Assembly: GCA_016871195.1 (NCBI GenBank)
Contig: VFZN01000016.1
Span: 1,115-65,114, forward strand
DNA length: 64,000 nucleotides
DNA from: Acidobacteriota bacterium
GTDB taxonomy: Bacteria; Acidobacteriota; Vicinamibacteria; Vicinamibacterales; UBA2999
Direction: 5' to 3'
The translations under genes and the position numbers were made by a program. Shown one piece after another: positions 12,186-49,326 of the stretch. Under the pieces are notes generated by a model that saw nothing but the letters and a program-made list of their open reading frames with translations, made no database searches and was not told where the DNA came from. The first letter of the stretch is position 1; each line of letters begins with the position of its first letter.

Positions 12186-12219
12186 GATGTCCTGCTCTCT
12201 TCGGAATGGCGTGGAGGGG

Positions 12220-32183: not shown

Positions 32184-34160
<1,977 letters not shown>

Positions 34161-34166
34161 AGCCCT

Positions 34167-35024
34167 CTACGGTACCACTGACGGGCCTGCGTCGGCGACC
34201 GCCTCGAGCACATGGCGCCTGAGCGCCGCGGCCACGCCGGCCTCGTCCTGACTGCCCGTCTCGGTGAAACCGCGCCCGCGGAGGCCTTGGACGGCATTGC
34301 CCATGATGACCGGCAGCCCGGCGTAGTCGAGCATCGGCAGATCGTTGAGGTTGTCGCCGATGGCCATGACCTCGGCGGCGGTAAGGCCGAGGGCCGATGC
34401 ACGGGCCGCGAGCGCGACGCCCTTGGTGGCCGCCTGGGCCATGACGTCGACCAGCGCGAAATCACGGTGTTCGTATTCGGTCTGGAAGATGCTGACACCC
34501 TCGACGCCCGACACGAGCGCATGCACGGCCCGCATCTCGCTGACCGTGCCGTTGAACATGACCTGCACGGGATCTTCGGTGAGGGCTGTCTCGAGGGGTG
34601 TGGCCCGGGCGATGAGATGCTGCCGGGCGCGCCAGTAGCTCAGCCGCTGCGGGTGGGACCAGTCCATCGACTCGGCCACGACGTGCGCGTGCGTGTCACG
34701 GTCGAAGATGAGGGCGCTGGTCGAGCGGAACCGCTGCGTGTGCTGCAGCACTGCCTGCGCCCGCTCGCGACTCAGCAGCCGCTGGGCGACTCCCACGCCG
34801 TCGAGGGTCCGTTCCACGGCGCCGTTCGAGGCGATGATGGTGACCGACGCCGGCAGCACTCCGGCGACGTCGCGCGCGAACGGATAGCTGCGCCCGGTCA
34901 CCAGCGCCACATGCACGCCGGCGGCGACCACGGCGGCAATGGCGTCCCGGTTGGCTTCGGGCAGACGGCCGCGGCTGTCGACGAGGGTGCCGTCAATGTC
35001 GATGGCGACGAGGCGAACCGGCAT
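34167..35024 (-). CDS. HAD-IIB (Cof-type) phosphatase
   Basis: AIDIDGTL (DxDGT) and GDNLNDLPML motifs. It lies 6 nt upstream of uup on the same strand. Confidence 0.85.
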   Translation of the reverse strand: MPVRLVAIDIDGTLVDSRGRLPEANRDAIAAVVAAGVHVALVTGRSYPFARDVAGVLPASVTIIASNGAVERTLDGVGVAQRLLSRERAQAVLQHTQRFRSTSALIFDRDTHAHVVAESMDWSHPQRLSYWRARQHLIARATPLETALTEDPVQVMFNGTVSEMRAVHALVSGVEGVSIFQTEYEHRDFALVDVMAQAATKGVALAARASALGLTAAEVMAIGDNLNDLPMLDYAGLPVIMGNAVQGLRGRGFTETGSQDEAGVAAALRRHVLEAVADAGPSVVP

Positions 35025-35085: not shown

Positions 35086-36723
35086 ATGATTGCCCTCGCC
35101 AACATCAACAAGCAGTACGGCCGCCAGCTCATCTTCGTCGACGCTTCGTTTCAGCTGAATCCCGGGGACAAAGTCGGCCTCGTGGGTCCGAACGGGGCCG
35201 GCAAGACCACGCTCTTCCGGATGATTGTCGGCGAAGAACAGCCGGATGAGGGCGAGGTGTCGGTGCCGCGCAAGCTCACGGTCGGCTACTTCCGCCAGGA
35301 TGTCGGTGAGATGCGCGGACGGCCGGTGATTGACGAGGCCATCGCCGGCAGCGGACGCGTCGGCGACCTGCACCACGAGCTGTCGTCGCTGCAGGCGGCC
35401 ATGGACGATCCGGCGCAGATGGACGACCTCGACCGCATCCTCGCGCGCTTCGGCGAGGTGCAGGAAGAGTACGAGCATCTCGGCGGCTACACGCTCGAAG
35501 CCCAGGCCCGCGAGGTGCTGCACGGGCTCGGGCTGGCCGACGACCAGATCGACGGCGACGTCGGGGCCCTGTCGGGCGGGTGGAAGATGCGAGTGGCCCT
35601 GGCGCGCGTGCTGCTCGGCAAGCCCGACGTGCTGCTGATGGACGAGCCGACGAACCACCTCGACATCGAGTCGATCATCTGGCTGGAACAGTTCCTCCGT
35701 ACCCTGCCCTCAGCCCTGCTGATGACCTCGCACGACCGCGAGTTCATGAACCGCATCGTCACGAAGATTGCCGAGATCGACAGCGGCGAAATCACGGTCT
35801 ACTCGGGCAACTACGACTTCTACGAACGCGAGCGGGCGATTCGCGAAACCAATCAGCAGGCGGCCTATGCGCGGCAGCAGGCGATGCTGGCCAAAGAGCA
35901 GCGGTTCATCGAGCGCTTCAAGACGCACGCCGCCAAGGCGGCACAGGTGCAGAGCCGCATCAAGGCCCTCGACAAGATCGAGAAGATCGAGCTGCCGAAG
36001 AAGCGCCAGATCGTCAAGTTCGAGTTCCGCACGCCGCCGCGATCGGGCGACCAGGTCGCGGTCATCGAGAACCTTCACAAGCGCTTCGGCCCGCGCATCA
36101 TCTACGACGGGCTCAGCCTCACGATCAGGCGCGGCGAGCGCTGGGCGGTGATGGGCCGCAACGGTGCGGGCAAGACGACGCTGCTGAAGATGCTGGCGGG
36201 CGTGCTGACGCCCGACACCGGTGACGTGCGGCTGGGGGCGAGCCTGCGCATGGGCTACTTTGCGCAGCAGTCGCTGGACGTGCTCGATGCCGACCTGACG
36301 ATCATCGAGCAGCTGCAGCAGGATTTTCCGCAGGACGGCCTCGGCGCGCTGCGCACGCTGGCCGGGGCCTTCCAGTTCTCGGGCGACGATATCGACAAGC
36401 GCATCCGCGCGCTGTCAGGCGGTGAGAAATCGCGGCTGGCCATGGCCCGCATGCTGTACAACCCGCCGAACTTCCTCGTGCTCGACGAACCGACCAACCA
36501 CCTCGACCTGGCGACCAAGGAAATGCTCGTCGATGCGCTGAAGGACTTCGACGGCACGATGATCTTCGTGTCGCACGACCGCATGTTCCTGCGCGGACTC
36601 GGGTCGCGCGTGCTTGAGCTTGGCGGCGACGGCGGCGACAGCCGCGACCCGCTGGTGTATCCCGGCAGCTACGTCGAGTATGTGGAAAAGACCGGCCACG
36701 AGGCGCCGGGCACCCACTCCTGA
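35086..36723 (+). CDS. ABC-F family ATPase (YbiT/YheS-like)
   Basis: Two cassettes (GPNGAGKTT / LSGGWKMR and GRNGAGKTT / LSGGEKSR) and no TM segments. The SD GGAAGG lies upstream. Confidence 0.85.
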   Translation: MIALANINKQYGRQLIFVDASFQLNPGDKVGLVGPNGAGKTTLFRMIVGEEQPDEGEVSVPRKLTVGYFRQDVGEMRGRPVIDEAIAGSGRVGDLHHELSSLQAAMDDPAQMDDLDRILARFGEVQEEYEHLGGYTLEAQAREVLHGLGLADDQIDGDVGALSGGWKMRVALARVLLGKPDVLLMDEPTNHLDIESIIWLEQFLRTLPSALLMTSHDREFMNRIVTKIAEIDSGEITVYSGNYDFYERERAIRETNQQAAYARQQAMLAKEQRFIERFKTHAAKAAQVQSRIKALDKIEKIELPKKRQIVKFEFRTPPRSGDQVAVIENLHKRFGPRIIYDGLSLTIRRGERWAVMGRNGAGKTTLLKMLAGVLTPDTGDVRLGASLRMGYFAQQSLDVLDADLTIIEQLQQDFPQDGLGALRTLAGAFQFSGDDIDKRIRALSGGEKSRLAMARMLYNPPNFLVLDEPTNHLDLATKEMLVDALKDFDGTMIFVSHDRMFLRGLGSRVLELGGDGGDSRDPLVYPGSYVEYVEKTGHEAPGTHS

Positions 36724-36726
36724 GGG

Positions 36727-36762
36727 GGCCCCCTTGGCTGGCCGAGGCCGGGCCGTTTTTTT
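36727..36762 (+). terminator. Rho-independent terminator after the ABC-F gene
   Basis: A GC-rich hairpin spans 36727-36754 (11 bp with a 2-nt bulge and loop CTGG). It is followed by G and T7 (36756-36762). Confidence 0.6.
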
Positions 36763-36868
36763 GCTTGCCTCCCGCCGCAAAAGAGGCCACTCTATCGAGT
36801 CGCATTCGGTTTTCTGAACGTGTCTGCAGTGGCCCCGTCTGCACCGGGGCCCGCCTGAGGAGGCGCCC

Positions 36869-38317
36869 ATGCATCGGCCGCTCGTCGTGTTCACCGCCGC
36901 ACTCATCGTCTTCGCTGCCGCCACCGCCCGCGCGCAGTCTGCGCCGGCGCCAGTGCCGACCTACTCGAAGGATGTCGCTCCCATCCTCAACAAGCACTGC
37001 GTCAGCTGCCATCGCCCCGGCGAAATCGGCCCGATGGCCTTCGAGAGCTATGCGCAGACCCGCCCGTGGGCACGGAGCATCCGCAGCAAGGTCATGCGCC
37101 GCGAGATGCCGCCCTGGGGCGCCGATAATGCCTCAAGCATGAAGATCGGCAACGACCGCACGCTGTCGTCGCACGAGCTCGACACCATCGTGGCGTGGGT
37201 GAACGGTGGCGCGCCCGAAGGCAACCCCGCCGACCTGCCCGCACGGCCCAGCTTCCCGACAGGCTGGCAGCTGGGTGAGCCCGACTTCGTGTTCGAGCAG
37301 CCGGTGGCCTGGACCGTCAAGCCCGACGCGCAGGAACCCTATCTCTACTTCTACGAGAAGATTCCGTTCGCTGAAGATCGCTGGGCCGCAGGCGTTGAAA
37401 TCCGTCCCAGCAACTTCAGCGTCGTCCATCACTCGGGCGTGTACATCATCGACATTCCCGACGGCTACACCGTGAAGGACGGCTACCTGTACGATGCGGC
37501 CGGCACGCAGGTGCCCCCCAGCGTGCCGATGGGCAAGCGCGCCACGCTGGCCGACGGCAGCCTTCTGGCCGGGGCCGACAAGGTGATCAGCTATGTGCCC
37601 GGGCGCGGCTACGAGAAGCATCCCGAGGGTTATGCCAAGCGCATTCCCGCCGGCAAGTACGTGCGCTGGGTAATGCACTACAACCCGACCGGGCAGCCCG
37701 AGACCGACCGCAGCAAGCTCGGCCTCTGGTGGGCCAAGGGCCCGGTCCGTCGCGAGGTGCTCAACCTGCAGGCGGGTGACCCCATCCCCGGCAGCGGCAA
37801 TCGCGGCCTCTACTTTGCCAACGGCAAGGAAGTGCTCTACGAGTCGGATGACACCACGGGCCGCCGCGGCAAGACCCCGACGATTCCCCCGTATGTGGCC
37901 GACTTTAAGATGATGGGGATCACACCGGTCAACGAGGACATCACGCTCTACGCCCTCACCCCGCACATGCACCTGCGCGGCAAGAGCATGAAGTGGTGGG
38001 TGACCTATCCCGATGGCCGAGAGGAAGTCATTCTCAACGTGCCCAACTTCGACTTCAACTGGCAGATCCAGTACGAACTCGCCACGCCGCTCAAGGTGCC
38101 GGCCGGCAGCAAGATTACCAACATCGCCATCTTCGACAATTCGGTGAACAACAAGTGGAATCCGGCGCCCGAGAAGGAAGTCTACTGGTCGGAGCAGAGC
38201 TGGGACGAGATGTACCAGCCCACGACCCAGTTCTCAATCGACCGCCAGGATCTGACGCGGCCCGCCGCACGGGGCACCCGCGAACAGCAGCGCCAGCAGC
38301 AGCACCAGCAGCAGTAA
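36869..38317 (+). CDS. Secreted fusion: N-terminal c-type cytochrome domain + PHM/DBH-like type-II copper monooxygenase
   Basis: Signal peptide, then CVSCH (C44-C47-H48) with a downstream EMPPWG. Then, in PHM order: VVHHSG, VMHYNP, TPHMHLRGK, SWDEMYQ. The SD GAGGAGG lies upstream. The C-terminal tail is Gln-rich. Confidence 0.75.
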   Translation: MHRPLVVFTAALIVFAAATARAQSAPAPVPTYSKDVAPILNKHCVSCHRPGEIGPMAFESYAQTRPWARSIRSKVMRREMPPWGADNASSMKIGNDRTLSSHELDTIVAWVNGGAPEGNPADLPARPSFPTGWQLGEPDFVFEQPVAWTVKPDAQEPYLYFYEKIPFAEDRWAAGVEIRPSNFSVVHHSGVYIIDIPDGYTVKDGYLYDAAGTQVPPSVPMGKRATLADGSLLAGADKVISYVPGRGYEKHPEGYAKRIPAGKYVRWVMHYNPTGQPETDRSKLGLWWAKGPVRREVLNLQAGDPIPGSGNRGLYFANGKEVLYESDDTTGRRGKTPTIPPYVADFKMMGITPVNEDITLYALTPHMHLRGKSMKWWVTYPDGREEVILNVPNFDFNWQIQYELATPLKVPAGSKITNIAIFDNSVNNKWNPAPEKEVYWSEQSWDEMYQPTTQFSIDRQDLTRPAARGTREQQRQQQHQQQ

Positions 38318-38322
38318 CGCCG

Positions 38323-38982
38323 ATGCGGCCGGTTACGTCACCACACGCTCATCGCCGTCGCGCGGCTCGCCGCGCGGCGGTCGCGGTGGCCCTCGCGTTG
38401 CTGGCGGTCGCGGGCACCACCGACACACACGGCTCCGTTCAGGCACAGCAGGAGCGGCCGACCAGTCAGGTGCCGACGCTGGGACGGCCGACACGGCCAG
38501 ACGACCCGGCACCGCTGCTCGACTTCGGCCGCTACTTCAACGGCACGTGGAATGTCAGCTGGGAATATCCGGAAAGCCCCCTCGGGCCGGCCGATGTCGT
38601 CGACGGCACCACCACCTTTCGCCAGGTGGGGCCCTCGACCTTCGAAGCATCGAGTGCGCTGACCAGCGCAGCCGGGGCCTTCACGGTGAAGGAAACCTTC
38701 GAGTATCAGCGGGCCGAGCAGACCATCACACGCACGGTCGTCGACAGCCGGGGCTTCACCTACACACAGACGGGCAGCGTCACCGGTGACCTCGGCGGGC
38801 AGTTCACCATCAGACTCGACGGCAAGCCCTTCACCCATCAGGGACAGACGGTCCGCATCAATGCCGTGATGCGACTGCTGTCGCCCTTCAACTTCCGGGT
38901 GCAGTTCACCCTGTCCACCGGCAACGGCCCGTTCACCAATTTCGGTAATCCCTGGTGGCGGAAGGAGACGGCACCGCGATGA
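38323..38982 (+). CDS. Secreted hypothetical protein (Arg-rich, possibly Tat-type leader)
   Basis: Start is set at MRPVTSPHAHRRRAARRAAVAVALALLAVAG, 6 nt after the upstream stop. The remainder is beta-rich. I recognise no domain. Confidence 0.55.
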   Translation: MRPVTSPHAHRRRAARRAAVAVALALLAVAGTTDTHGSVQAQQERPTSQVPTLGRPTRPDDPAPLLDFGRYFNGTWNVSWEYPESPLGPADVVDGTTTFRQVGPSTFEASSALTSAAGAFTVKETFEYQRAEQTITRTVVDSRGFTYTQTGSVTGDLGGQFTIRLDGKPFTHQGQTVRINAVMRLLSPFNFRVQFTLSTGNGPFTNFGNPWWRKETAPR

Positions 38983-39359
38983 GACGACTGTCCTGCCTTG
39001 TCCTTCTGCTCGCCGGCACCATCGGTGCGGCCGCCGCCCAGGAACCTGCGTCGAGCCGCGTACCCGTCGTGGCCGTGGCGGGGTGTGTCACGCAGCAGGG
39101 CGCCGCCTATGGCCTGCGATCGGCCACCGAGCCCACTCCGAGCATCGCCAACGGACTGCCGACCGGCGACGTCTACAAGGGACCAACCGTCGGCCCGAAC
39201 ACGTTCCAGCTCATCGGCACCTCCGAGTTCGACATGCCCGCGCACGTCGGCCACACCGTGCTGATCAAGGGGCTGCTCATCAAAGCCTCGCCGACCAGCC
39301 GGCTCAATGTCACGTCAGTGAGCCGTCTGTCGACATCGTGTGCCCCGGCGCCGAAGTGA
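38979..39359 (+). CDS. Small secreted hypothetical protein
   Basis: Start is at MRRLSCLVLLLAGTIGAAAAQ and overlaps the upstream stop (ATGA at 38979-38982). 126 aa with two Cys in the mature part. Confidence 0.55.
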   Translation: MRRLSCLVLLLAGTIGAAAAQEPASSRVPVVAVAGCVTQQGAAYGLRSATEPTPSIANGLPTGDVYKGPTVGPNTFQLIGTSEFDMPAHVGHTVLIKGLLIKASPTSRLNVTSVSRLSTSCAPAPK

Positions 39360-40476
39360 CCTGAGCGGCCGGGCCCTGGGCCTGCCGGCGGGCCTGACCC
39401 TGCTGGCGACGCTGGCGACACTGCCCCTCTCGACCGGCCTTCAGGCCCACGACTTCGAGCGGACCACCGTTCATCTCACCATCGCCCGTGACGGGCGCTT
39501 CGAGCTCAGGCTGGCGCACGACCCTCAGTGGCTGCTGCTGCGCATGGACTCGCTCGCAGGCCAGCCCGGCCGCCCCGCCGACTCGGCCGAGGCACGCGAT
39601 GCCCGCCTGACGGCGCTGGCACCCGACGCCATCGATCGGGTCGTGCTCTTCATCGACGGTCGCGAAGTCCGTCCCGAGTCGAGCACCTATGCGCCACCCC
39701 CCGACACCGTCCCGGCTGGTGAATTCGCCCTGGCATCGTACACACTGCGCGGGCAGCTGCCGGCCTCGAGTACAACCCTTCGCTGGTACTACGGGCTCGT
39801 GGCCGATCCGTATCCGTTCACGCTCACCCTCGCGGATGGAACGACCGTGACCGAATGGGTGCAAGGTGATGCCTGGAGCACGGCGCTCGCCCTCGGCACG
39901 GCTCCTCAGCCGACCCTCACCGATGATCTGGTTCGATACGTGTGGCTCGGCATCACGCACATCGTCCCGGGTGGTCTCGATCACATGCTGTTCATTGCAG
40001 GGCTGTTCCTGCTGACGGCGGCATGGCGGTCGCTGCTGTGGCAGGTGTCGGCATTCACGGTGGCGCACACCCTCACGCTGGGCCTGGCACTGACGGGTGT
40101 CATCGCGCTGCCATCGGCCGTGGTCGAGCCGCTCATTGCCCTGTCGATCAGGTATGTGGGCCTCGAGAATGTGCGGACGCGCGAGCTGACGCGCACGCGC
40201 GTGGGGCTGGTGTTCGTCTTCGGCCTGCTGCACGGCCTCGGATTCGCCGGCGTGATGCAGGGCCTGCGCCTGCCGGCGTCGCAGCTGGTCCCCGGACTGC
40301 TGGGCTTCAATCTCGGCGTGGAACTCGGACAGCTGGCCGTGCTGGGCAGCCTCGCGCTGCTCACGTGGCCTCTGAGGCACCGCGTCTGGTATCACCAGCG
40401 GATGGTGACGCCGGCCTCGCTGGGCATCGCCCTCATCGGTCTCTACTGGGCAGTGACCCGACTGATGCAGGGATGA
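39340..40476 (+). CDS. HupE/UreJ-2 family membrane protein with N-terminal periplasmic domain (putative metal permease)
   Basis: GTG start overlaps the upstream gene. The signal is followed by LQA|HDFE, so the predicted mature N-terminus is a His. Motifs include HIVPGGLDHMLFIAGLFLL and GLLHGLGFAGVM across 6 TM helices. Confidence 0.7.
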   Translation: MPRRRSDLSGRALGLPAGLTLLATLATLPLSTGLQAHDFERTTVHLTIARDGRFELRLAHDPQWLLLRMDSLAGQPGRPADSAEARDARLTALAPDAIDRVVLFIDGREVRPESSTYAPPPDTVPAGEFALASYTLRGQLPASSTTLRWYYGLVADPYPFTLTLADGTTVTEWVQGDAWSTALALGTAPQPTLTDDLVRYVWLGITHIVPGGLDHMLFIAGLFLLTAAWRSLLWQVSAFTVAHTLTLGLALTGVIALPSAVVEPLIALSIRYVGLENVRTRELTRTRVGLVFVFGLLHGLGFAGVMQGLRLPASQLVPGLLGFNLGVELGQLAVLGSLALLTWPLRHRVWYHQRMVTPASLGIALIGLYWAVTRLMQG

Positions 40477-40536: not shown

Positions 40537-41622
40537 TTACCGCGCGCTGCCGGTCGCAGGCACAAACTTCTGGATGCGCTGCCCGTAGGTATCGGCGGCA
40601 TACACCGCGCCTTTCGAGTCGACGACGATGCCGTGAACCCAGTCGAACTGGGAGGGCCCGAGCCCCTGCGAACCCCAGGTGGCGAGCAGCGTGCCGTCTG
40701 CCAGCGAGAACTTGTGCACGCGCTCGCGCAGGTGATCGGCCATGTAGCCGACACCTTCGGTGCCCTTCCGCGAGATGTGCACATCCCACGGATTCCAGTC
40801 GTTCCTGAGCTCGCGCTTGTAGGTCAGGTTGCGGTCGAAAATCTGCAGGCGCTTGTTCTCGCGGTCGATGATGTAGAGGTTCTCCTCGGCATCCACGGCC
40901 AGCTTGTGCGGCAGATGCCACTCGCCGGGGCCAGTACCGCGGTCGGCCGGCCCACCTGCGCCACGCGCCACCTGGCGGATGACCTTGCCCTGGCGGTCGT
41001 AGAGAATCACGCGGTTGTTGCCGTAACCATCGGTGACGACCATGTTGCCGTTCTTCAGGATCGCAATGCCAGACGGCAAATCAAGATGCGTCGCGTCGTT
41101 GCCCTTCTCGAGCGTGGTGCCGATCTGGAGCAGCAGCCGATCCATCGACGGGTTGAGCTTCACGATGCGATGGGCATCGCGCTCGATGATGTAGACGTTG
41201 CCCTCCCAGTCGACACCGCCCGAATGCTGCCAGTCGGAGTTGATCTTCTTCCCGTTGTATTCGCCGTCGCCGCCGGTCTGAATCAGCGTGCCTGCGGTGT
41301 CGAACACCATGACGGGCTTGGGCCCGCGATTGAAGACGAAGATGCGGTCCTGCTGATCGATGGCCAGACCGGAGATGCCGGGCTGATTGGTCGGCGGACC
41401 TGAGGGGCCACTGGCACCGCGGGCACGTCGGGCCGCTGCCTGCGCCTCGCGCTCGGCCGGAGGTGGTGGCGCCTCGCGCAAGCCGAACCACATTCCCGAA
41501 GGCAACGTGGGCCAGTTGGGCACCAGACGATATGCCTCTCCCTGTGCCTCGACGCGTGACGCCGGCCACGCCAGCGCCAGAATCACCGCTGCTGCACACG
41601 CTGCCACTCTGATGGGTCGCAT
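40537..41622 (-). CDS. Secreted NHL-repeat six-bladed propeller, peptidyl-alpha-hydroxyglycine alpha-amidating lyase (PAL)-like, paralogue 1
   Basis: Start is at MRPIRVAACAAAVILALAWPASRVEAQ, with GGGAGAA upstream. Motifs are VTDGYGNNRVILYD, WHLPHKLAVD and IIDRENKRLQIFD. Confidence 0.75.
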   Translation of the reverse strand: MRPIRVAACAAAVILALAWPASRVEAQGEAYRLVPNWPTLPSGMWFGLREAPPPPAEREAQAAARRARGASGPSGPPTNQPGISGLAIDQQDRIFVFNRGPKPVMVFDTAGTLIQTGGDGEYNGKKINSDWQHSGGVDWEGNVYIIERDAHRIVKLNPSMDRLLLQIGTTLEKGNDATHLDLPSGIAILKNGNMVVTDGYGNNRVILYDRQGKVIRQVARGAGGPADRGTGPGEWHLPHKLAVDAEENLYIIDRENKRLQIFDRNLTYKRELRNDWNPWDVHISRKGTEGVGYMADHLRERVHKFSLADGTLLATWGSQGLGPSQFDWVHGIVVDSKGAVYAADTYGQRIQKFVPATGSAR

Positions 41623-41794: not shown

Positions 41795-42784
41795 ATGCGA
41801 CTGCTGCGTCCTGCATCCGCTGCCCTGGCTACGCTGCTGCTGGCCACCTCACTCGCCGCCCAGAACCCTGCCACGCTGCCGCCCGAGGAGCGTGCGGCCT
41901 TCGAGGCGCAGAACCGGGCACTCGACGAGACCGTCCGTTCGGCCCCGCGACTGCCGCTGGTGGCTGCGCCGCTGCCCCTCACCCCCCCGAAGCACCCCGA
42001 CTGGGCGCTCGGCATGGTGTCGTGGGTCGCCGCCGGCGCCGATGGGCTCACCTATCTGCTGCAGCGCGGCGCGCAAGCCGACCCGGTGCTGGTCGTCGAC
42101 CGCGGCGGCCGCATCGTCCGATCGTGGGGACGCGGACTTTATACGATGCCGCACGCCATCCGGGTCGATCCGCAGGGCGCTGTGTGGACCACCGATGCCG
42201 CCAGTTCGAAGGTGTTCAAGTTCAGCCCGACCGGCACACTGCTGATGACCATCGAGGTGGGTGGGCAGCCGTCGCCGTGCGGCGGGTTCTGCAGCACCAC
42301 CGACATTGCCTTTGCGGCCGACGGCCACCTGCTCATCGCCGACGGGTATCGCAACGCACGCATCCTCGAGTACACCGCGGAGGGGCAGAAGGTGCGCGAG
42401 TGGGGACGCGCGGGCACAGGCCCCGGCGAATTCCGCCTGCCGCATTCCATTCAGATTGACGCCCGCGGCACCATCTATGTGGCCGATCGCGAGAACGGCC
42501 GCATCCAGCGCTTCACGCGCGAGGGCACCTTCATCGGCGAGTGGAGGAATCTCGGCAAGACGTTCGGGCTGACGCTGGCCGGACCGACGCTGTGGCTCTC
42601 GACCATCCCCCGCGGTCCCAACACCGCGCCCGGCTGGCTGATGGCGGTCGACCCGGTCACGGGACGCGTCACAGGGCTCGTCGAGTCATCGGGGAATCAC
42701 GGCATGGCGGTGACGCCCGACGGCGACCTGCTGCTCGGCCCCGGGCCCGATCAGATACCGCAGCGGTACTCGCCCCGTCGCTAG
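41795..42784 (+). CDS. Secreted NHL-repeat propeller, PAL-like, paralogue 2
   Basis: Start is at MRLLRPASAALATLLLATSLAAQ. Motifs are MPHAIRVDPQGAVWTTDAASSKVFKF, FCSTTDIAFA, IADGYRNARILEY, FRLPHSIQID, VADRENGRIQRF and NHGMAVTPDG. Confidence 0.8.
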   Translation: MRLLRPASAALATLLLATSLAAQNPATLPPEERAAFEAQNRALDETVRSAPRLPLVAAPLPLTPPKHPDWALGMVSWVAAGADGLTYLLQRGAQADPVLVVDRGGRIVRSWGRGLYTMPHAIRVDPQGAVWTTDAASSKVFKFSPTGTLLMTIEVGGQPSPCGGFCSTTDIAFAADGHLLIADGYRNARILEYTAEGQKVREWGRAGTGPGEFRLPHSIQIDARGTIYVADRENGRIQRFTREGTFIGEWRNLGKTFGLTLAGPTLWLSTIPRGPNTAPGWLMAVDPVTGRVTGLVESSGNHGMAVTPDGDLLLGPGPDQIPQRYSPRR

Positions 42785-44280
42785 GCGGGGGGACGCGGGG
42801 CTGCTGCGAGTGCGCGCAGCACGGCCTCAGCCTCGGGCTGGCCTGCGCGTGCCGGTGCGCGACCCGGCTGGGCCGGGCGGGGCAGCGTCAGCGACAGCGG
42901 CGTCTGCCCCTGCGCATCCTGCGCGTCAATCACTGCGCCTTGAGCCACGAGCGCACGAATCACCCCGACATGACCATCAGCCGCCGCCAGATGCAGCGGC
43001 GTCTGCCCTCCGGGTCCGGCATCGCGGGGAGACGCTCCGGCATCGAGCAGCGCCTGCACCACCGCCTCGACATCGCGGCGGTCGCGGGGAATCAGCGGCG
43101 TGTCGGCGTCGGTGACATTCCATCGCACGAGATCAGACGGACGCGCTTCCCGTTCGACCATGGCACCGGCCGCCATCGTGAGCGGCGTGTGTCCGTCGGC
43201 GAGCCCCAGCGATGGATCAGCGCCTGCCGCGAGCAGCGTACGCACCAGCGTGACTTCGAGATAGGCCACCGCAAGCATGAGCGGGGTGGCCCCGCGCAGC
43301 GTGTGCGACAGGGCCCACTGCGACCCGAAACGCCGCACCGGGCTGCCCTGCCGCAGACGCGCATGCACATTGGCCCCGCGGGCCAGCAGCGCACGCACAG
43401 AGTCGTTATCGCCGCGCAGCACGGCCGCGTGCAGTGCGGTATAGCCGGCCCCATCGGCCTGCACGTCGGCACCGGCCTCGATCAGGCGACGAGCCGCCGT
43501 TCCGTGACCGTCAAACGCGGCCAGCACGAGGGCCGAACGTCCGTCGGCGGCCACATCGTTGGACGGCGCGCCATGCGCCAGCAGCACCTCGAGGGTCGGC
43601 ACATCACCTGACAGGGCCGCAAAGAGCAGCGGTGTCAGGCCGCCGGCGGTGACGCGGTGCGCATCTTGCCCCGACGTCTTCACGCTGCGGCTCGGGCCGC
43701 GGTCGAACATGACCACCAGCGGCCGCGTGAGCGAACGGGCGTGCACGGCGGCTCCCCTGGCGAGCAGGGCCTCGGCGGCTGCGCGGTGTCCACCGGAGGC
43801 CGCCCACATGAGGGCGGTCTGTCCACGCACCGGCTCGGTACGGCGCGGATCGGCACCGGCGTCGAGCAGCGCCCGCACGGCTGCGGCATCGCCGACGCGG
43901 GCGGCTTCCATGAGGGGATCGATGCCGGCCTCCGTCAGGGCGGTCGCCGATGCGCCGGCGTTCAGCAGGGTCTGCACAATCGCCGCATGGCCCGCCGCCG
44001 CGGCCAGGTGCAGCGGCGCCACGCCGAGATCGGTCACCGCACCCGCATCGGCGCCGGCGGCCAGCAGGCGCGAGACGATGGCGGTGTGGCCGGCGTGCGC
44101 GGCCCAGTGCAGCGCGGTGCTGCCGTCGGGCGCGGCAGCGCGCACCGACACGCCCTCGTTGAGCAGGCGCGTCACCGCGGCCGCATCGCCGTCGCGCGCG
44201 GCCGCCATCATCGGCGGCAGCGCAGGCGGTGCCGCGGCCCCGAGACCCACGGCCAGTGTCAGGACCAGAGCCGGCAGCAT
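42781..44280 (-). CDS. Secreted ankyrin-repeat protein (more than 10 ANK repeats)
   Basis: Signal MLPALVLTLAVGLGAAA, then reiterated G-TALHWAA--GH--IV--LL--GA units over the whole length. The start shares one nt with the upstream stop (TGATG). Confidence 0.8.
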   Translation of the reverse strand: MLPALVLTLAVGLGAAAPPALPPMMAAARDGDAAAVTRLLNEGVSVRAAAPDGSTALHWAAHAGHTAIVSRLLAAGADAGAVTDLGVAPLHLAAAAGHAAIVQTLLNAGASATALTEAGIDPLMEAARVGDAAAVRALLDAGADPRRTEPVRGQTALMWAASGGHRAAAEALLARGAAVHARSLTRPLVVMFDRGPSRSVKTSGQDAHRVTAGGLTPLLFAALSGDVPTLEVLLAHGAPSNDVAADGRSALVLAAFDGHGTAARRLIEAGADVQADGAGYTALHAAVLRGDNDSVRALLARGANVHARLRQGSPVRRFGSQWALSHTLRGATPLMLAVAYLEVTLVRTLLAAGADPSLGLADGHTPLTMAAGAMVEREARPSDLVRWNVTDADTPLIPRDRRDVEAVVQALLDAGASPRDAGPGGQTPLHLAAADGHVGVIRALVAQGAVIDAQDAQGQTPLSLTLPRPAQPGRAPARAGQPEAEAVLRALAAAPRPPA

Positions 44281-45596
44281 CAGTCGAACGACAGCGGCCC
44301 GGTGCTGTTGCCGTGTACGTCGATGCGTACGCCGAGGGTATCGAGCAGGCCGAGGTGCATATTGGCGAGCGGTGTGCCCTCGGCGTAGCGGACATGGCGG
44401 CCACCGCGAATCGTGCCGCTGCCCCCGCCCACGAGCAGCAGCGGCAGGTTGCGTGGCACGTGCCCATTGCCCTCGCTCATGCCCGCGCCGTACAGCAGCG
44501 TCACGTGATCGAGCAGCGACCCGTCGCCGTCAGGTGTGTCGCGCAACCGGTTCACATACTCGGCGAAGAGCGACACGTGATAGTGGTTGATGCGCGCGCA
44601 CTTGTCCATGCGCACCGGGTCGCGCTGGTGATGCGAAATGGGATGGTGCGCATCGGGCACGCCGATTTCCGGATAGGTGCGGCCGCTGAACTCGCGCCCC
44701 AGCATGAAGGTCGTCACGCGCGTCACGTCACCCTGGTAGGCCAGCAGCTGCAGGTCGAACATGAGCCGCGCATGCTCGGCAAAGCTCTCGGGCACACCCG
44801 CCGGGCGATCGAATCGCGGCAGTGTGATGTTCTCGGTCATCGTCCGCTGGATGCGGCGCTCGACGTCGCGCACACTGTCGAGATAGGTGCCGAGCGTGAC
44901 GCGATCGGCCGCAGCGACGCGGCTGCGCAGCCCGGAGATCTCGCCCACGAGCGAGTCGAGCAGGCTGCCCTTGAGCTGCAGGCGCGTGGCCTGATCGGCC
45001 GCGCCGTCGCCGAACATGCGCGCAAACACCACGCCGGGGTCTCGCTCCATCGGCAGCGGCGCCGTCGGGCCGGCCCACGCAATCGTGCCGGTGTACACGC
45101 AGCTGCGGCCGAAATCGCACGACATCCCTGAGTCGACCGACTCGAGCGCCAGCTCGAGCGACGGCAGCAGCGCGTCGGCGCTGAGCGTGCGGGCGGCCAC
45201 CTGATCAATCGAGACACCCGCGCGCAGCGTACGGCTCGGGGTGACATCGGTCAGGAACCGCGTGCTGGCGTCGGCGTGATTGTTGAACTGGCGCTCGCCC
45301 GGCGGCGCCGGCGGCAGACTGTCGAGTCCGCTCAACACCAGCAGGCGATCGCGGACCGGCGCCAGGGGCATCAGCGTGGGTGACAGTGTGAAGCTGCTGC
45401 CCGTGTCTGCCGGAAACCACTGTCCCGGAATGACCCCGTTCGGCACATACACCACACCGAAGCGGCGCCGGGGCGAAGCCACCGTCTGCGCCAGCGGGGT
45501 CAATGCCGGCACCATGGCATCGAGCAGCGGCAGCGGCAAGGCGGCCCCGAGGCTGCGCAGCAGCGTGCGACGCGAAAGTGCTTTCTTCATGATCAT
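44280..45596 (-). CDS. DUF1552 (HXXSHH) family protein with Tat-like leader
   Basis: Start is at MIMKKALSRRTLLRSLGAALPLPLL. It carries the HHPISHH motif. The ATGA overlap with the upstream DUF1592 gene is at 45593-45596. Confidence 0.8.
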   Translation of the reverse strand: MIMKKALSRRTLLRSLGAALPLPLLDAMVPALTPLAQTVASPRRRFGVVYVPNGVIPGQWFPADTGSSFTLSPTLMPLAPVRDRLLVLSGLDSLPPAPPGERQFNNHADASTRFLTDVTPSRTLRAGVSIDQVAARTLSADALLPSLELALESVDSGMSCDFGRSCVYTGTIAWAGPTAPLPMERDPGVVFARMFGDGAADQATRLQLKGSLLDSLVGEISGLRSRVAAADRVTLGTYLDSVRDVERRIQRTMTENITLPRFDRPAGVPESFAEHARLMFDLQLLAYQGDVTRVTTFMLGREFSGRTYPEIGVPDAHHPISHHQRDPVRMDKCARINHYHVSLFAEYVNRLRDTPDGDGSLLDHVTLLYGAGMSEGNGHVPRNLPLLLVGGGSGTIRGGRHVRYAEGTPLANMHLGLLDTLGVRIDVHGNSTGPLSFD

Positions 45597-48037
45597 GATG
45601 ACGCCCGGCTCCTCATCTGAAATGGCACGCTGCTCACCACGGCCCGCACCAGGGCCGACCATCGATCGCCCCCGGCGAGCGTGGCCTCGGCAATGGCCCG
45701 CACCGCCGGCTGATCGTGCACCGTCAACTGGCGCCCGATGGCATAGGTCAGCATGCGTGCGGCCAGTGTCATGCGCAGCCCGTCGGCGCGTGACAGCACG
45801 AATCGCCGCAGTCCGACTACGCCGCTGATCGGCGTGCCATCGGCAAACACCGCCGAGGCATCGACCGGCTGCCCCAGCGTGTGCGTGCGCACACGCCCGA
45901 TGGCGTCGAACTGCTCGAGGGAAAACCCGAGCGGATCCATCCGCGCATGACACGACGCACAGGCCGGGTTGCGGCGATGCTGTTCCATCTGCGCCCGCAT
46001 CGTCAGGGGACGTCCGTCCTCGTCGGTCGCCGCCAGATCGGGAATGTCGGGCGGCGGTGGAGGCGGAGGCATGCCGAGCAACGTGTCGAGAATCCAGGTG
46101 CCGCGCAGCACCGGTGTAGTGCGATCGGGATACGACGTCGCCAGCAGCATCGCGCCGAGCCCGAGTACGCCGCCGCGCACCCCGTCGGTGAACGTGTGCC
46201 GGCGATACAGGTCGGTGTGCATGCCGCTGATGCCGTAGTGGTCCGCGAGGCGTGCATTGATGAACGAATAGTCGGCCGACACCAGCTCGGTGACGGGCCG
46301 GTCATCACGCAGCTGGCTGCCGAGGAAGCGCCGGGCTTCCTCGAGCAGCGCCCGTCTGAGGTTTTCGTCGAACTCGGGGAAGACATTCGCATCAGGCAGC
46401 GCGGCCTCGACCTTCCGAAGCCCGAGCCACTGAAATGCAAAGTTGGTGACGAGCGCCTCGGCCTTCGGATCGGCCAGCATCCGCCGCACCTGCGCATCGA
46501 GAGTGGCGGGCGTCGACAGCTGCCCGCGCTCGACGAGCCGCAGCAATGACTCGTCCGGCACGCTGCTCCAGAGGAAGAACGACAGCCGCGAGGCGAGATC
46601 GCCGTCGCTCAGCCGATAAGCGGCGGTTGCCTCGCCGCCGACCGGATCGTGCTCGAGGCGGAAGAGGAAGGGCACGCTCACCAGCAGCCGCTCGAGCGCG
46701 GCCTGCACGCCGGCCTCGAACCCGCCGCGGGTGGCGCCCTGCTCATAGAACGCCAGCAGGGGTGCCAGATCATCGGCGCCCACGCGACGCCGGTATGCGC
46801 GCCGCGCCACCTGCGAAAGAATGCGCTCGGCGCAGGCGCGCGCCGGCAGCGTCGGCGACGGTCGGCACACAAACAGGGTGCGCCGGCTCGGCGTGTCACC
46901 CGCCGGGCCCGGGCGCTGCGGACCAATCACGGTCACGGCATCCACAGCGGCCAGTCCGTCGTACTGCTCGTCAGACCCGCGACCGAAGTCGACGGCCAGC
47001 GGCTGCGCAACGCTGTCAGACACCCACGGCGTGTCGACGAAGGTCACCGACACCTCGTGCGGACCGGCCCCGACTGCCGTGCTCACCGCCAGGTCGCGGT
47101 CGGCGGCGTGCATGTAGAGCTCCCACGGCGTCTCGCCGACAATTTCACCGTTCCACGTCAGCGGACCGGGCAGACCCGGCGCCGCACCACCGACCCGCAG
47201 GCGTCCGACGCGGCGCCTGTCGATGCGCACGTCGAGTGTCTGCGGCGTCCCCAGGCCGATGATGTAGTCGTACACCTGCCGTCGCAGACGCACCGCGATG
47301 CGATAGTCGCCATCCGCGGGAAAATGATGCGTGACCGTCGCTCCTCCGCGCGAGCCAAACGGCTGCGCCGCATCGACGCGGCTGTCCTGCTCGAGCAGCC
47401 TGGGCACGCGATACGACACCGCGGCCGGTGTCGCCGACAGTGATGCATCACCCACCGCCAGGCGGCTGATGTCGCGCGCGGCGGTCAGGTAGCGTTCGAG
47501 ATGTGCGGGCGACAGGGTGAGGCTGGCCGCCACGTTGTCAAAGCCCTCGTCGGCCTCGTCGGGCAGCAGCAGCGCCCGCGTGTCGACCTCGAGGCCGAAC
47601 ACATCGCGCACCGCGTTCGCGTATTCCGCACGATTGAGGCGGTGGGCGCCGGTGCGGCCCGGCCTCGGGTGCTGCCGGGCCTGCGCATCGAGCGCATCGG
47701 TTAGGGTGCGCTGCACCTCGACCGTCCACCCGGCATCGGGCCGCGGGCGTGACGGCGGGGGCATCTGCCCCGTGCGCAGCTTGTGCAGCACGGGTTCCCA
47801 GAGTTCCGGGTGCTGCGCGGCCTCGCTGGCACGCGCGCCGGTCAGGCTGAACCCACCCACGCGGGCGCGATCGTTGTGACACGACAGGCAGTGGTCCTGC
47901 ACATAGCCGTCGGCGGTTCGAGGCGCAGCGGCAGGCAACGGTGGCGTCAGCGCCTGCCCGCGCGTGGCCGCGTGCGTGAGCGACAGCACCAGCCCGACGA
48001 CCAGGGCGCCCGGAATGAGAGAATCGCGGGCTCTCAT
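45593..48037 (-). CDS. DUF1592/DUF1588/DUF1585-type large secreted protein with CxxCH motifs (planctomycete-type PSD/PSCyt architecture)
   Basis: Start is at MRARDSLIPGALVVGLVLSL. CLSCH lies near the N-terminus and NPACASCHARMDPLGF near the C-terminus. The ~814-aa length and pairing with DUF1552 are typical of the family. Confidence 0.75.
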   Translation of the reverse strand: MRARDSLIPGALVVGLVLSLTHAATRGQALTPPLPAAAPRTADGYVQDHCLSCHNDRARVGGFSLTGARASEAAQHPELWEPVLHKLRTGQMPPPSRPRPDAGWTVEVQRTLTDALDAQARQHPRPGRTGAHRLNRAEYANAVRDVFGLEVDTRALLLPDEADEGFDNVAASLTLSPAHLERYLTAARDISRLAVGDASLSATPAAVSYRVPRLLEQDSRVDAAQPFGSRGGATVTHHFPADGDYRIAVRLRRQVYDYIIGLGTPQTLDVRIDRRRVGRLRVGGAAPGLPGPLTWNGEIVGETPWELYMHAADRDLAVSTAVGAGPHEVSVTFVDTPWVSDSVAQPLAVDFGRGSDEQYDGLAAVDAVTVIGPQRPGPAGDTPSRRTLFVCRPSPTLPARACAERILSQVARRAYRRRVGADDLAPLLAFYEQGATRGGFEAGVQAALERLLVSVPFLFRLEHDPVGGEATAAYRLSDGDLASRLSFFLWSSVPDESLLRLVERGQLSTPATLDAQVRRMLADPKAEALVTNFAFQWLGLRKVEAALPDANVFPEFDENLRRALLEEARRFLGSQLRDDRPVTELVSADYSFINARLADHYGISGMHTDLYRRHTFTDGVRGGVLGLGAMLLATSYPDRTTPVLRGTWILDTLLGMPPPPPPPDIPDLAATDEDGRPLTMRAQMEQHRRNPACASCHARMDPLGFSLEQFDAIGRVRTHTLGQPVDASAVFADGTPISGVVGLRRFVLSRADGLRMTLAARMLTYAIGRQLTVHDQPAVRAIAEATLAGGDRWSALVRAVVSSVPFQMRSRASS

Positions 48038-48060
48038 GGGCCGCGAGTGTAGCAGAAGAC

Positions 48061-49326
48061 TCAGGCCGGCAGGCGCGCGACGAGCACCTTGTCGATGCGC
48101 CGGCCATCCATGTCGACCACCTCGAAGCGGTGGCCTTCCCATTCGCAGAGATCCGCTGTGTGCGGCACATGCCCGAGCCGCGCCATGATAAATCCACCGA
48201 GTGTGTGGTACGCGCCGGTTTCATCCTCAGGCAGCGCATCGAGCCCGAGGCGGTCGAGCACCTGTTCGATGGGGGCCGACCCGTCGATGAGCCACGAGCC
48301 GTCGGCGCGCTGCACGAAGAACCCGGCCGCCTCGCTGACGTCGGCCGGCATGTGCCCCACCAGCGCCTCGAGCATGTCGGTCACGGTGACGAGGCCTTCC
48401 ACGGCCCCGAACTCGTCCATCACGAGACCGAGGTGCGTGTGCGACTTGCGGAACGCCTCGAGCAGCTGCACCGCCGGCATCGAGTCGGGCACAAACAGCG
48501 CATCGCGTGTCAGGGCCCGCAGGTTGATGTCTTCGCCCCGCATCGCCCGCGGCAGCAGCTCGGCCGCGCGCACAAACCCGAGCACATTGTCGAGCCCGCC
48601 CTGACAGACGACAAAGTGCGTGTGCGCATGACTCGCCAGAAATGCACGCAGTTCGTCGGACGTGGCGTCAACATCAATCCATTCGATGTCGGGCCGCGGC
48701 GTCATGATGGCCGCCACCCGCTGGTCGCCGAGCTGCAGCACGCGCTGCACAATCGACTCTTCCTCGGCCTCGAGCACGCCGCTTTCAGCCCCCTGGCTGA
48801 TCACAGCCTTGATCTCTTCTTCCGTGAGGTGAGACTCGGCCTGCTCTCTCACGCCAATCAGGCGCAGCACCAGCCGCGTGGTGCCGGTCAGCAGCGAGAC
48901 AAACGGGCCGCCGAGCGTCGCGAGGCCGCCCATGGGCCTCGCCACCCACGACGCGATGGTCTCAGGCCAGGTCAGCGCAATGTTCTTCGGCACCAGCTCG
49001 CCGATGACCAGCGACAGGAAGGCGATGACGGTCACCACCAGCGTCAGCGCGATGCCTTCGGCATAGGGGGCCAGCTGGGGAACCGCGCCGATTTCCAGGG
49101 CAAGGGGCTCGGCCAGCTCGGCGCCGCCGTAGGCACCCGCCAGAATACCCACCAGCGTGATGCCGACCTGCACGGTCGACAGGAACTGCGCCGGATGCGT
49201 CGCCAGCGCCAGCGCGGCTTTCGCACGCGCATCGCCTTCGTCAGCGCGCTGCTGCAGGCGCACCTTGCGCGCCGCGACGACCGCCATCTCGGACATGGCG
49301 AACACCCCGTTGGCGAGGATGAGCAC
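48061..49326 (-). CDS. CNNM/HlyC/CorC-family membrane protein (DUF21 + CBS pair + CorC_HlyC)
   Basis: Shows NGVFAMSEMAVV (DUF21), a central CBS region and a C-terminal CorC-type domain. The start is uncertain: the in-frame upstream codons encode SGIAFELIVILV but contain no ATG/GTG/TTG. Confidence 0.8.
   Translation of the reverse strand: MLILANGVFAMSEMAVVAARKVRLQQRADEGDARAKAALALATHPAQFLSTVQVGITLVGILAGAYGGAELAEPLALEIGAVPQLAPYAEGIALTLVVTVIAFLSLVIGELVPKNIALTWPETIASWVARPMGGLATLGGPFVSLLTGTTRLVLRLIGVREQAESHLTEEEIKAVISQGAESGVLEAEEESIVQRVLQLGDQRVAAIMTPRPDIEWIDVDATSDELRAFLASHAHTHFVVCQGGLDNVLGFVRAAELLPRAMRGEDINLRALTRDALFVPDSMPAVQLLEAFRKSHTHLGLVMDEFGAVEGLVTVTDMLEALVGHMPADVSEAAGFFVQRADGSWLIDGSAPIEQVLDRLGLDALPEDETGAYHTLGGFIMARLGHVPHTADLCEWEGHRFEVVDMDGRRIDKVLVARLPA

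Follow-up and report, generated by a model that had tools for sequence, protein, structure and literature searches.

A PHM/DBH-type copper monooxygenase homologue with a built-in cytochrome c module, encoded in a conserved gene cluster of Vicinamibacterales

PHM, DBH and TBM are the textbook non-coupled dicopper monooxygenases. PHM forms the N-terminal catalytic domain of eukaryotic PAM, and it accepts two electrons, one at a time, at its copper site CuH. Bacteria generally lack ascorbate. The literature that we searched treats PHM, DBH and TBM as eukaryotic and ascorbate-dependent and discusses PAM as co-occurring with cilia; its full texts, among them reviews on the chemistry of PHM (2025) and the phylogeny of PAM (2019), describe no bacterial PHM homologue, no cytochrome c-PHM fusion and no bacterial pair of PHM and PAL. 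Here we report the analysis of a gene of an Acidobacteriota bacterium of the order Vicinamibacterales (contig VFZN01000016.1), located in a 64,000-nucleotide (nt) stretch of DNA that was analysed as a whole and is referred to below as the window. Results of our analysis indicate that the product of this gene, designated here the fusion protein, belongs to the copper monooxygenase family of PHM and DBH and carries a c-type heme module of its own, and that it is one of the members of a very large, uncharacterised bacterial family. The gene and the parts of its product to which we refer are the following:

36869-38317, + strand: cytochrome c-PHM-like fusion gene, 482 amino acids (aa) plus stop, with open reading frame and translation verified
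36733-36762, + strand: terminator-like hairpin with a T-run, which closes the upstream ABC-F gene and delimits the transcription unit on its 5' side
36859-36863, + strand: Shine-Dalgarno sequence GGAGG, recognised from the sequence, 5 nt before the ATG at 36869
36869-36934, + strand: predicted signal peptide, residues 1-22, found by sequence inspection (hydrophobic core, A20-R-A22, then Q23)
36956-37213, + strand: mono-heme cytochrome c module, residues ~30-115 (PF13442; helices 32-45, 61-76 and 101-112)
36998-37012, + strand: CVSCH heme c attachment motif (C44, C47, H48), invariant in the alignments A1, A2 and A3 described below
37103-37120, + strand: EMPPWG motif, residues 79-84, with M80 as the candidate sixth (axial) heme ligand
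37286-37768, + strand: N-terminal beta-sandwich (CuH domain), residues ~140-300, with H187/H188 at nt 37427-37432 and H270 at nt 37676-37678
37769-38263, + strand: C-terminal beta-sandwich (CuM domain), residues ~301-465, with H366-x-H368 at nt 37964-37972 and M448 at nt 38210-38212
38255-38314, + strand: variable, polar, Gln-rich tail, residues 463-482, unconserved and with a predicted local distance difference test score (pLDDT) below 50 at residues 467-476

The relationship of the fusion protein to PHM and DBH is indicated both by its predicted fold and by the comparison of sequence profiles. An AlphaFold2 model built from 20 homologues reached a pLDDT of 74.8 and a predicted template modelling score (pTM) of 0.74, and a Foldseek search of the PDB with this model returned PHM or DBH in all of the top 31 positions (E ~6e-12 to 1.5e-9, probability 1.0). 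The aligned part, about 330 columns, corresponds to essentially the whole PHM catalytic core, with target-normalised template modelling (TM) scores of 0.52-0.59 for PHM chains and 0.36 for the longer DBH chains. By sequence only, a family profile made of 51 relatives without N-terminal extensions matches PHM with an E value of 1.5e-11 and DBH with an E value of 4.6e-11. In this profile alignment, the CuH motifs vHH and LQVHY fall on PHM H107/H108 and H172 (H187, H188 and H270 of the window protein), and the CuM motifs pHmHlrGk and dEM fall on H242-T-H244-HLGK and DEM314 (H366, H368 and M448 of the window protein). All six PHM copper ligands are in register in the fusion protein.

The conservation of these residues was followed in three alignments that span increasing divergence: A1 comprises 20 sequences that are 53-93% identical to the window protein, A3 comprises 51 sequences with identities down to 33%, and A2 comprises 57 long relatives with a mean column identity of 14%. 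The six copper ligands are invariant in all three, and the columns that are invariant across A1, A2 and A3 are essentially CxxCH, MPP, HH, H, HxH and EM; in A2, almost all of the invariant columns are cofactor residues. A single-sequence search of PDB sequences with the fusion protein as a query gave no PHM or other relevant match, and the sequence-level detection of PHM and DBH was achieved only with the family profiles (A2 and A3). Among the 57 distant relatives, PF03712 was found in 16 and PF01082 in five (E <= 1e-3).

The original prediction, which was made by a model from the sequence of this gene, described a single CVSCH followed by EMPPWG in the N-terminal region and proposed a cytochrome domain fused directly upstream of a two-domain copper monooxygenase fold. 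Both statements agree with our results. The motifs occupy C44-H48 and E79-G84, Pfam assigns Cytochrome_CBB3 (PF13442) to residues 38-90 with 29.5 bits at a cutoff of 27 bits (E 9.8e-7), which supports the kinship of this region with cytochromes c, and the copper fold downstream of it is the one that Foldseek and the profiles connect with PHM and DBH. The second cytochrome family model, PF00034, scored 17 bits and remained under its cutoff of 21.3 bits. The description of the module as planctomycete-type is not supported, as PSCyt1 (PF07635) gave no match at E <= 1. The fusion protein contains two cysteines in all, both of them within CVSCH, and hence exactly one CxxCH. M80, located 36 residues after C44, is the candidate axial ligand suggested by the sequence; the M-P-P triplet is invariant in A1, A2 and A3, W83 varies only in A3, and there rarely, and M56 is invariant among close relatives only.

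The N-terminal region, for which disorder had been considered in the original prediction, is ordered in the model. When modelled alone, the heme module had a pLDDT of 82.4 and a pTM of 0.79. Of its three helices, the first ends at CxxCH and the third follows the Met loop, and this order of helices and motifs fits a class I cytochrome c. The module is directly N-terminal to the CuH domain, and residues 113-139, which link it to the first beta-sandwich, are highly conserved and confidently modelled, which suggests that the heme module is held against the CuH domain at a fixed interface rather than loosely tethered to it. The signal-peptide-like N-terminus implies that the fusion protein would be exported to the periplasm, and as the attachment of heme c requires export, the presence of this signal peptide fits a covalently bound heme.

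The opposite end of the protein proved to be less informative. The Gln-rich tail that the original prediction had singled out is indeed present, with eight Gln among the last 20 residues of the window protein, but tails with at least four Gln occur in only 26 of 119 homologues, and the tail represents the extreme of a variable, unconserved polar terminus that is modelled with low confidence. It was rejected as a functional motif. The region of the fusion gene has a GC content of roughly 67% and shows no compositional anomaly. Antisense or overlapping long open reading frames occur throughout the region, e.g., one of 279 aa at 37133-37972 (- strand) inside the fusion gene, and they are taken to be by-products of the ~67% GC content, not genes. 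No sigma-70-like promoter was predicted at the locus, no Rfam family matched there, and no second PHM-like paralogue was found within the window.

The association between CxxCH and the copper core is far beyond chance. CxxCH was present in 120 of 120 close homologues, and in 118 of these the mature protein has no other cysteine. The motif is retained in distant relatives too, as is, in both groups, the candidate axial Met; the conservation in orthologues, on which the original prediction had made its proposal depend, was therefore found. The best 150 representatives of clusters at 50% identity include 130 full-length proteins, and in every one of these CxxCH precedes the HH pair by about 143 residues. 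A word-indexed search detected at least 5,595 relatives among 8,000 scored candidates. The top 120 are all full-length proteins of about 470-490 aa, and their names do not go beyond "hypothetical", "cytochrome c" and "mono/diheme cytochrome c family protein". A HMMER scan of 1.84 billion representatives retrieved 15,842 clusters at E <= 1e-3, including 2,252 at E <= 1e-30. The closest relatives in species-representative genomes come almost exclusively from metagenome-assembled genomes (MAGs) of Vicinamibacterales and other Acidobacteriota. Such clusters were also found in MAGs labelled Bifidobacteriaceae, Bifidobacterium, Clostridia, Cyanobacteriota and Acidimicrobiia (loci L020, L045, L083, L067, L042 and L053). 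In the four of these with enough flanking sequence (L042, L045, L053 and L067), the layout is the one typical of Vicinamibacterales-type loci whose fusion protein is ~53% identical to that of the window; L020 and L083 have p219, a neighbour gene described below, downstream of the fusion gene, and L020 also has p134. These taxonomic labels are probably binning or taxonomic-assignment errors in public records.

The longer members of the family differ in architecture at their N-termini. In 35 of the 57 longer representatives an AhpC/TSA (redoxin) domain precedes the cytochrome module, and the same set yielded PF13442 in 24 proteins and Haem_bd (PF14376) in 12. Genes adjacent to those of the redoxin-fused branch look planctomycete-like. 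Some members have further additions, namely C-terminal EF-hands, a glycogen-binding carbohydrate-binding module or ankyrin repeats. The whole unit is duplicated in tandem in two members. In P0122 (1251 aa), CxxCH, HH, HxHxxG and EM each occur twice with their normal spacing, and both halves gave redoxin/thioredoxin-like matches; P0124 (1064 aa) contains CxxCH and the HH pair twice but HxHxxG once.

The most informative context of the fusion gene, which the original prediction missed, consists of its conserved neighbours, including genes of PAL-like lyases. In the window, the fusion gene is followed by five genes:

38323-38982, + strand: p219, exported protein of 219 aa, probable calycin-type beta-barrel, starting 5 nt after the stop codon of the fusion gene
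38979-39359, + strand: p134, exported protein of ~100 aa in mature form with two invariant Cys, overlapping the p219 stop by 4 nt
39340-40476, + strand: HupE/UreJ_2-type membrane permease (Pfam PF13795, E 7.8e-44), overlapping p134 by 20 nt
40537-41622, - strand: NHL1, exported, PAL-like six-bladed NHL propeller, convergent to the cluster
41795-42784, + strand: NHL2, second exported PAL-like NHL propeller, divergent from NHL1

The successive intergenic gaps from the fusion gene through p219 and p134 to the HupE gene are 5, -4 and -20 nt, and no further terminator-like site was predicted between the hairpin at 36733-36762 and the end of the HupE gene. All six proteins of the cluster have N-terminal signal or hydrophobic leaders. 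To estimate the constancy of this arrangement, the neighbours of the fusion gene in the window were compared by tblastn with 83 loci encoding its relatives. Matches to p134 were found in 74 of these loci, to p219 in 62, to the HupE gene in 48, and NHL1 orthologues of 62-79% identity in 41; the control genes, encoding the ABC-F and HAD proteins, were matched in three loci and in none, respectively. At the loci that encode both, NHL1 is better conserved than the fusion protein. The layouts include PHM-p219-p134, p219-NHL1-(HupE)-p134-PHM and PHM-p219-NHL-p134. The order of the genes varies across the loci while the genes remain together, which speaks for functional linkage and against inherited synteny alone.

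The composition of the neighbourhood depends on the clade. Flanks of at least 4 kb on each side were available for 59 loci, of which 56 had p134, 50 had p219 and 32 had NHL1, and these full-flank loci were divided as follows:

Clade of at least 65% identity (the window's own), 15 loci: p134 in 15, p219 in 12, NHL1 in 1, HupE in 1
Clade of ~53% identity, 44 loci: p134 in 41, p219 in 38, NHL1 in 31, HupE in 34

The window is unusual in that it combines the gene sets of both clades. Six pairs of paralogous fusion genes were noted within single genomes or contigs (L012/L062, L006/L063, L050/L081, L017/L065, L005/L069 and L016/L039). In these pairs, the copy of ~73-86% identity has p134 downstream, and in four of the six also p219, and the copy of ~53% identity usually has HupE and often a PAL-like gene, and this points to a pair of specialised systems in each organism.

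The most constant partner of the fusion gene, p134, belongs to a family of 101 clusters that has no Pfam domain and the sole name "hypothetical protein". Its invariant cysteines are near both ends of the mature protein, and its C-termini are APK or AAK; as these end in Lys and not in Gly, it is not an obvious Gly-extended substrate. Both p134 and p219 were rejected as precursors of Gly-extended substrates, as they are conserved and fold-like and their C-termini are APK, AAK or variable, not Gly. The matches of p219 comprise repeated sub-threshold hits to DUF1579 and one to a nitrobindin-type beta-barrel, and p219 is probably, on these weak resemblances, a calycin-like binding protein. The membrane domain of the permease opens with the motif HIVPGGLDH (residue 207), and the exported N-terminal domain that precedes it (~190 aa, 39340-39936, + strand) matched no Pfam family; some permease orthologues appear to be devoid of this domain, as their tblastn matches span ~150-185 aa only. 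NCBIfam contains no model for the fusion protein, p219, p134 or HupE.

Several genes around the cluster may be mentioned. Directly upstream of it, two ABC-F paralogues that are 38% identical, at 32184-34160 (- strand) and 35086-36723 (+ strand), flank a gene of a Cof-type HAD hydrolase (34167-35024, - strand). Directly after NHL2, a gene at 42781-44280 (- strand) encodes a 499-aa protein that consists nearly entirely of ankyrin repeats (Ank_2, E 7.5e-61); ankyrin-repeat proteins are uncommon among free-living bacteria. Further downstream, a DUF1552 (HXXSHH) gene at 44280-45953 (- strand) adjoins a gene at 45593-48142 (- strand) whose 849-aa product has PSD2, PSD3, PSD4, PSD5 and PSCyt3 domains (DUF1592 family). 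This is the classic planctomycete-type pair, here in an acidobacterial genome, 6-10 kb downstream of the fusion gene and unrelated to it, and no other element in the vicinity is genuinely of planctomycete type. A gene at 49392-51485 (+ strand), ~7 kb downstream of the cluster, encodes an S9 prolyl-oligopeptidase-family peptidase with PD40 beta-propeller repeats, for which a link to peptide processing is conceivable.

NHL1 and NHL2 match the Pfam NHL and 6-bladed propeller models. Their matches to rat PAL (3fvz) have E values of 3.5e-20 and 2.1e-28, respectively; TRIM-type NHL domains score similarly. The presence of PAL residues was examined in an alignment of the rat PAL sequence, verified against its PDB entry, with NHL1, NHL2 and 36 NHL1 orthologues. 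The Zn ligands H585, H690 and H786, the catalytic Y654, and R533 and R706 are kept in 36-37 of the 37 NHL1-type sequences and in NHL2; PAL M784 is replaced by Trp in NHL1. In BLASTP, NHL1 is collinear with rat PAL over all blades (25% identity over 311 columns, E 3e-24) with the catalytic residues in register, and NHL2 is 33% identical to it over 224 aa (E 3e-32). All six residues are also kept in independent NHL subtypes that adjoin the fusion gene at other loci (L023, L075 and L077), and the NHL proteins of L075 and L077 are 30-31% identical to PAL (E ~1e-40). Loosely placed NHL genes have lost some of them: the product of 11472-13283 (- strand) in L045 has Y654H and H786E, and that of 761-2038 (+ strand) in L032 has R533L; these served as an internal negative control and may be non-catalytic propeller paralogues. 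In the TRIM-type NHL protein Thin, H690 is replaced by Trp and H786 by Arg or Glu. Given these losses in L045, L032 and Thin, the six-residue signature is not generic to NHL repeats. The resemblance to PAL is already in databases as an inconsistent automatic label, since NHL1 orthologues are named "peptidylamidoglycolate lyase" (some JGI entries), "YncE" or "6-bladed beta-propeller". The identification of NHL1 as ScyF by the NCBIfam model was rejected (100 bits at a cutoff of 350 bits).

Taken together with the copper and heme residues, this context leads us to propose the following mechanism. The fusion protein would be an exported oxidoreductase with three cofactors, one heme c and two separate mononuclear coppers. 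The heme would be bound through thioethers of C44 and C47, with H48 and M80 as axial ligands; CuH would be coordinated by H187, H188 and H270, and CuM by H366, H368 and M448. The heme would take single electrons from periplasmic respiratory carriers and deliver them to the adjacent CuH and further to CuM, where O2 would be activated at the His2Met site and a C-H bond of the substrate hydroxylated. As PHM is reduced in one-electron steps, a one-electron heme donor fits such an enzyme, and the role of the heme as a built-in electron donor, suggested already in the original prediction, is one that we infer from the sequence. A published account presents acquired cytochrome domains as built-in mediators in other oxidoreductases (PMC6472588). 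We estimate the probability of this core model, a heme-fed monooxygenase of the PHM type, at about 0.6.

A wider scheme can be proposed for the locus of the window. The PAL-like zinc lyases NHL1 and NHL2 would cleave the carbinol formed by the fusion protein to an amide plus an aldehyde or glyoxylate, so that the overall reaction would be a PAM-like, two-step oxidative N-C(alpha) cleavage of an exported substrate. The proteins p134 and p219 would have accessory or substrate-handling functions, and the HupE-type permease could be tied to metal supply. This full pathway, with hydroxylation followed by PAL-like lysis, is proposed tentatively, and we consider it possible rather than probable. The same reserve applies to its furthest extension, in which Vicinamibacterales would hold a complete, ascorbate-independent counterpart of PAM that converts exported Gly-terminated peptides or N-acylglycines to amides plus glyoxylate, and in which the family, as an unrecognised class of heme-copper monooxygenases, could be the source lineage of eukaryotic PHM/DBH and PAL; this, too, is a doubtful though possible proposition.

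Several of our results weigh against these proposals, in whole or in part, and some of them favour other explanations. In the copper core, Cu2_monoox_C (PF03712) was detected on residues 337-426 with 19.1 bits only, below the cutoff of 23 bits, and PF01082 gave no Pfam match in the window protein. The residues that anchor the substrate carboxylate and backbone in PHM are not conserved: R240 is replaced by Leu, Thr or Ser (T364 in the window protein) and Y318 by Phe or Thr (T452), and N316 of PHM aligns to Ile in the profile and to Gln450 in the window clade. The monooxygenase therefore gives no ground for assuming peptidyl-glycine specificity; the metal sites that PHM and DBH use in catalysis are present, but the substrate pocket cannot be deduced from PHM. 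In the PAL-like partners, the residue of the structural Ca site of PAL, D787, is Gly in 36 of 37 NHL1-type sequences. The distribution of these partners is also uneven, as PAL-like and HupE genes are near the fusion gene at only one of the 15 loci of the window's own clade, and none of p134, p219, HupE and PAL-like partners was found in 80 metagenome loci of the redoxin-fused branch scanned with alignment A5, where no neighbour recurred in more than 9 of the 80. The coupling with a lyase is thus clade-specific, and the notion that linkage to PAL characterises the family in general was rejected. The loss of the anchors and this distribution of the lyase genes, together with the nearly equal scores of DBH and PHM and with partners more constant than the lyase (p134 and p219 in 56 and 50 of the 59 full-flank loci, the lyase in 32), would be expected if the protein had the same cofactors and the same heme-to-copper flow but hydroxylated a small molecule, as DBH and TBM do, or a residue of a partner protein, e.g., p134, and the propellers were separate or only loosely related to it. 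We find this, the main alternative, somewhat unlikely. At least three independent PAL-like subtypes that keep the catalytic residues adjoin the fusion gene, some of them in a same-strand operon (L075, L077 and L023), and NHL1 orthologues exceed the fusion protein in conservation at the loci that they share. As for p134 as a substrate, it looks folded and conserved, and its C-termini bear no hint of a modification site.

A reading with no monooxygenase at all starts from the permease. The proximity of a HupE/UreJ-type metal permease to the fusion gene at more than half of the 83 loci would suit a module for the acquisition or homeostasis of Cu, Ni or Zn, and the AhpC/TSA redoxin domain of so many distant relatives could point to peroxide or thiol redox, i.e., to a heme-copper protein of electron transfer, an oxidase or a peroxide-handling protein. 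However, His3 and His2Met ligand sets that stay invariant over very large divergence are more readily explained by O2 activation than by storage or transport, no HupE gene was found near the genes of the redoxin-fused branch, and the catalytic residues kept by the PAL-like partners imply an enzymatic hand-off of a product; we judge this reading improbable. Two further observations concern the heme module and the source of its electrons. The cluster encodes no gene of a physiological electron donor, and the Foldseek search with the isolated heme module, although nine of its top 11 matches were cytochromes c6, c551 and SorU, was non-significant (E 3.8-7.3, TM 0.3-0.4), so that the assignment as a cytochrome c rests on the evidence of its sequence. 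Together with a Pfam score barely over the cutoff, the Foldseek result could mean that the N-terminal module is a heme-free structural relic and that the coppers obtain electrons from a small-molecule reductant. A relic would not stay so constrained, whereas CxxCH and the Met of MPP are invariant across thousands of sequences with no further cysteines present in the protein, and the export signal that heme c attachment needs has been retained; we therefore regard this explanation as very improbable. The heme-fed PHM-type monooxygenase remains our preferred interpretation of the fusion protein.

What is new here is a conserved, exported cluster of Vicinamibacterales in which the fusion gene is accompanied by p134, p219, a HupE/UreJ-type permease and NHL propellers that keep the PAL residues. 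A bacterial, ascorbate-independent, PAM-like system is put forward on this basis as a concrete and testable hypothesis. The bacterial family would provide an easily expressed, disulfide-free prokaryotic model for an enzyme class whose mechanism is contested, and a natural system in which a defined delivery of single electrons into CuH and on to CuM could be watched. An ascorbate-free enzymatic route to peptide amidation, if it exists, would be relevant to therapeutic peptides. That the fusion gene is linked with PAL-like genes in a soil order as abundant as this one suggests a pathway of N-C bond cleavage, extracellular or periplasmic, that has gone unrecognised, and it raises the question of the origin of eukaryotic PAM. 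Additionally, thousands of entries labelled "cytochrome c" or "hypothetical" could be re-annotated.

Among the described systems, PHM (PDB 1PHM, 1OPM and 1SDW) is the closest to the fusion protein. The two have in common the two-domain beta-sandwich, the motifs LQVHY, HxHxxGK and DEM, the six copper ligands and a PAL-type partner, which is a fused domain in PAM and the product of a separate gene here. They are only ~12-13% identical, and PHM has no counterpart of the N-terminal c-type cytochrome module. None of the five disulfides of PHM can form in the fusion protein, as it has no cysteines beyond those of CVSCH. The settings differ as well: PHM acts in the secretory pathway with ascorbate, whereas the fusion protein is bacterial, predicted to be periplasmic and presumably reduced by its heme. 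DBH and tyramine beta-monooxygenase (PDB 4ZEL) share the catalytic core and the ligand set with the fusion protein (Foldseek E of 3e-10 for DBH), but the additional N-terminal domain of DBH is a DOMON domain, in place of which the fusion protein has a predicted class I-type cytochrome c, and the dimerisation domain of these enzymes is absent from it. In the case of PAL, NHL1 and NHL2 share with it the six-bladed NHL propeller, 25-33% identity, the Zn ligands and Y654, R533 and R706; they differ from it in the replacements of D787 by Gly and M784 by Trp, and in being separate exported proteins.

Small heme domains that link catalysis to an electron pool are known from other enzymes, including cytochrome c-fused copper nitrite reductases, caa3 oxidases, quinohemoprotein dehydrogenases and cellobiose dehydrogenase, which feeds the LPMO copper. 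The fusion protein follows the same design logic; this is an analogy of mechanism, not a homology of catalytic domains, and to our knowledge none of these examples has a non-coupled dicopper monooxygenase of the PHM/DBH type as its partner. In secretory granules, the single electrons of PHM and DBH are supplied by a separate transmembrane b-type cytochrome, b561, via soluble ascorbate. A heme protein is thus the ultimate electron source in that system too, while in the fusion protein the heme, of c-type, is predicted to be covalently a part of the enzyme itself.

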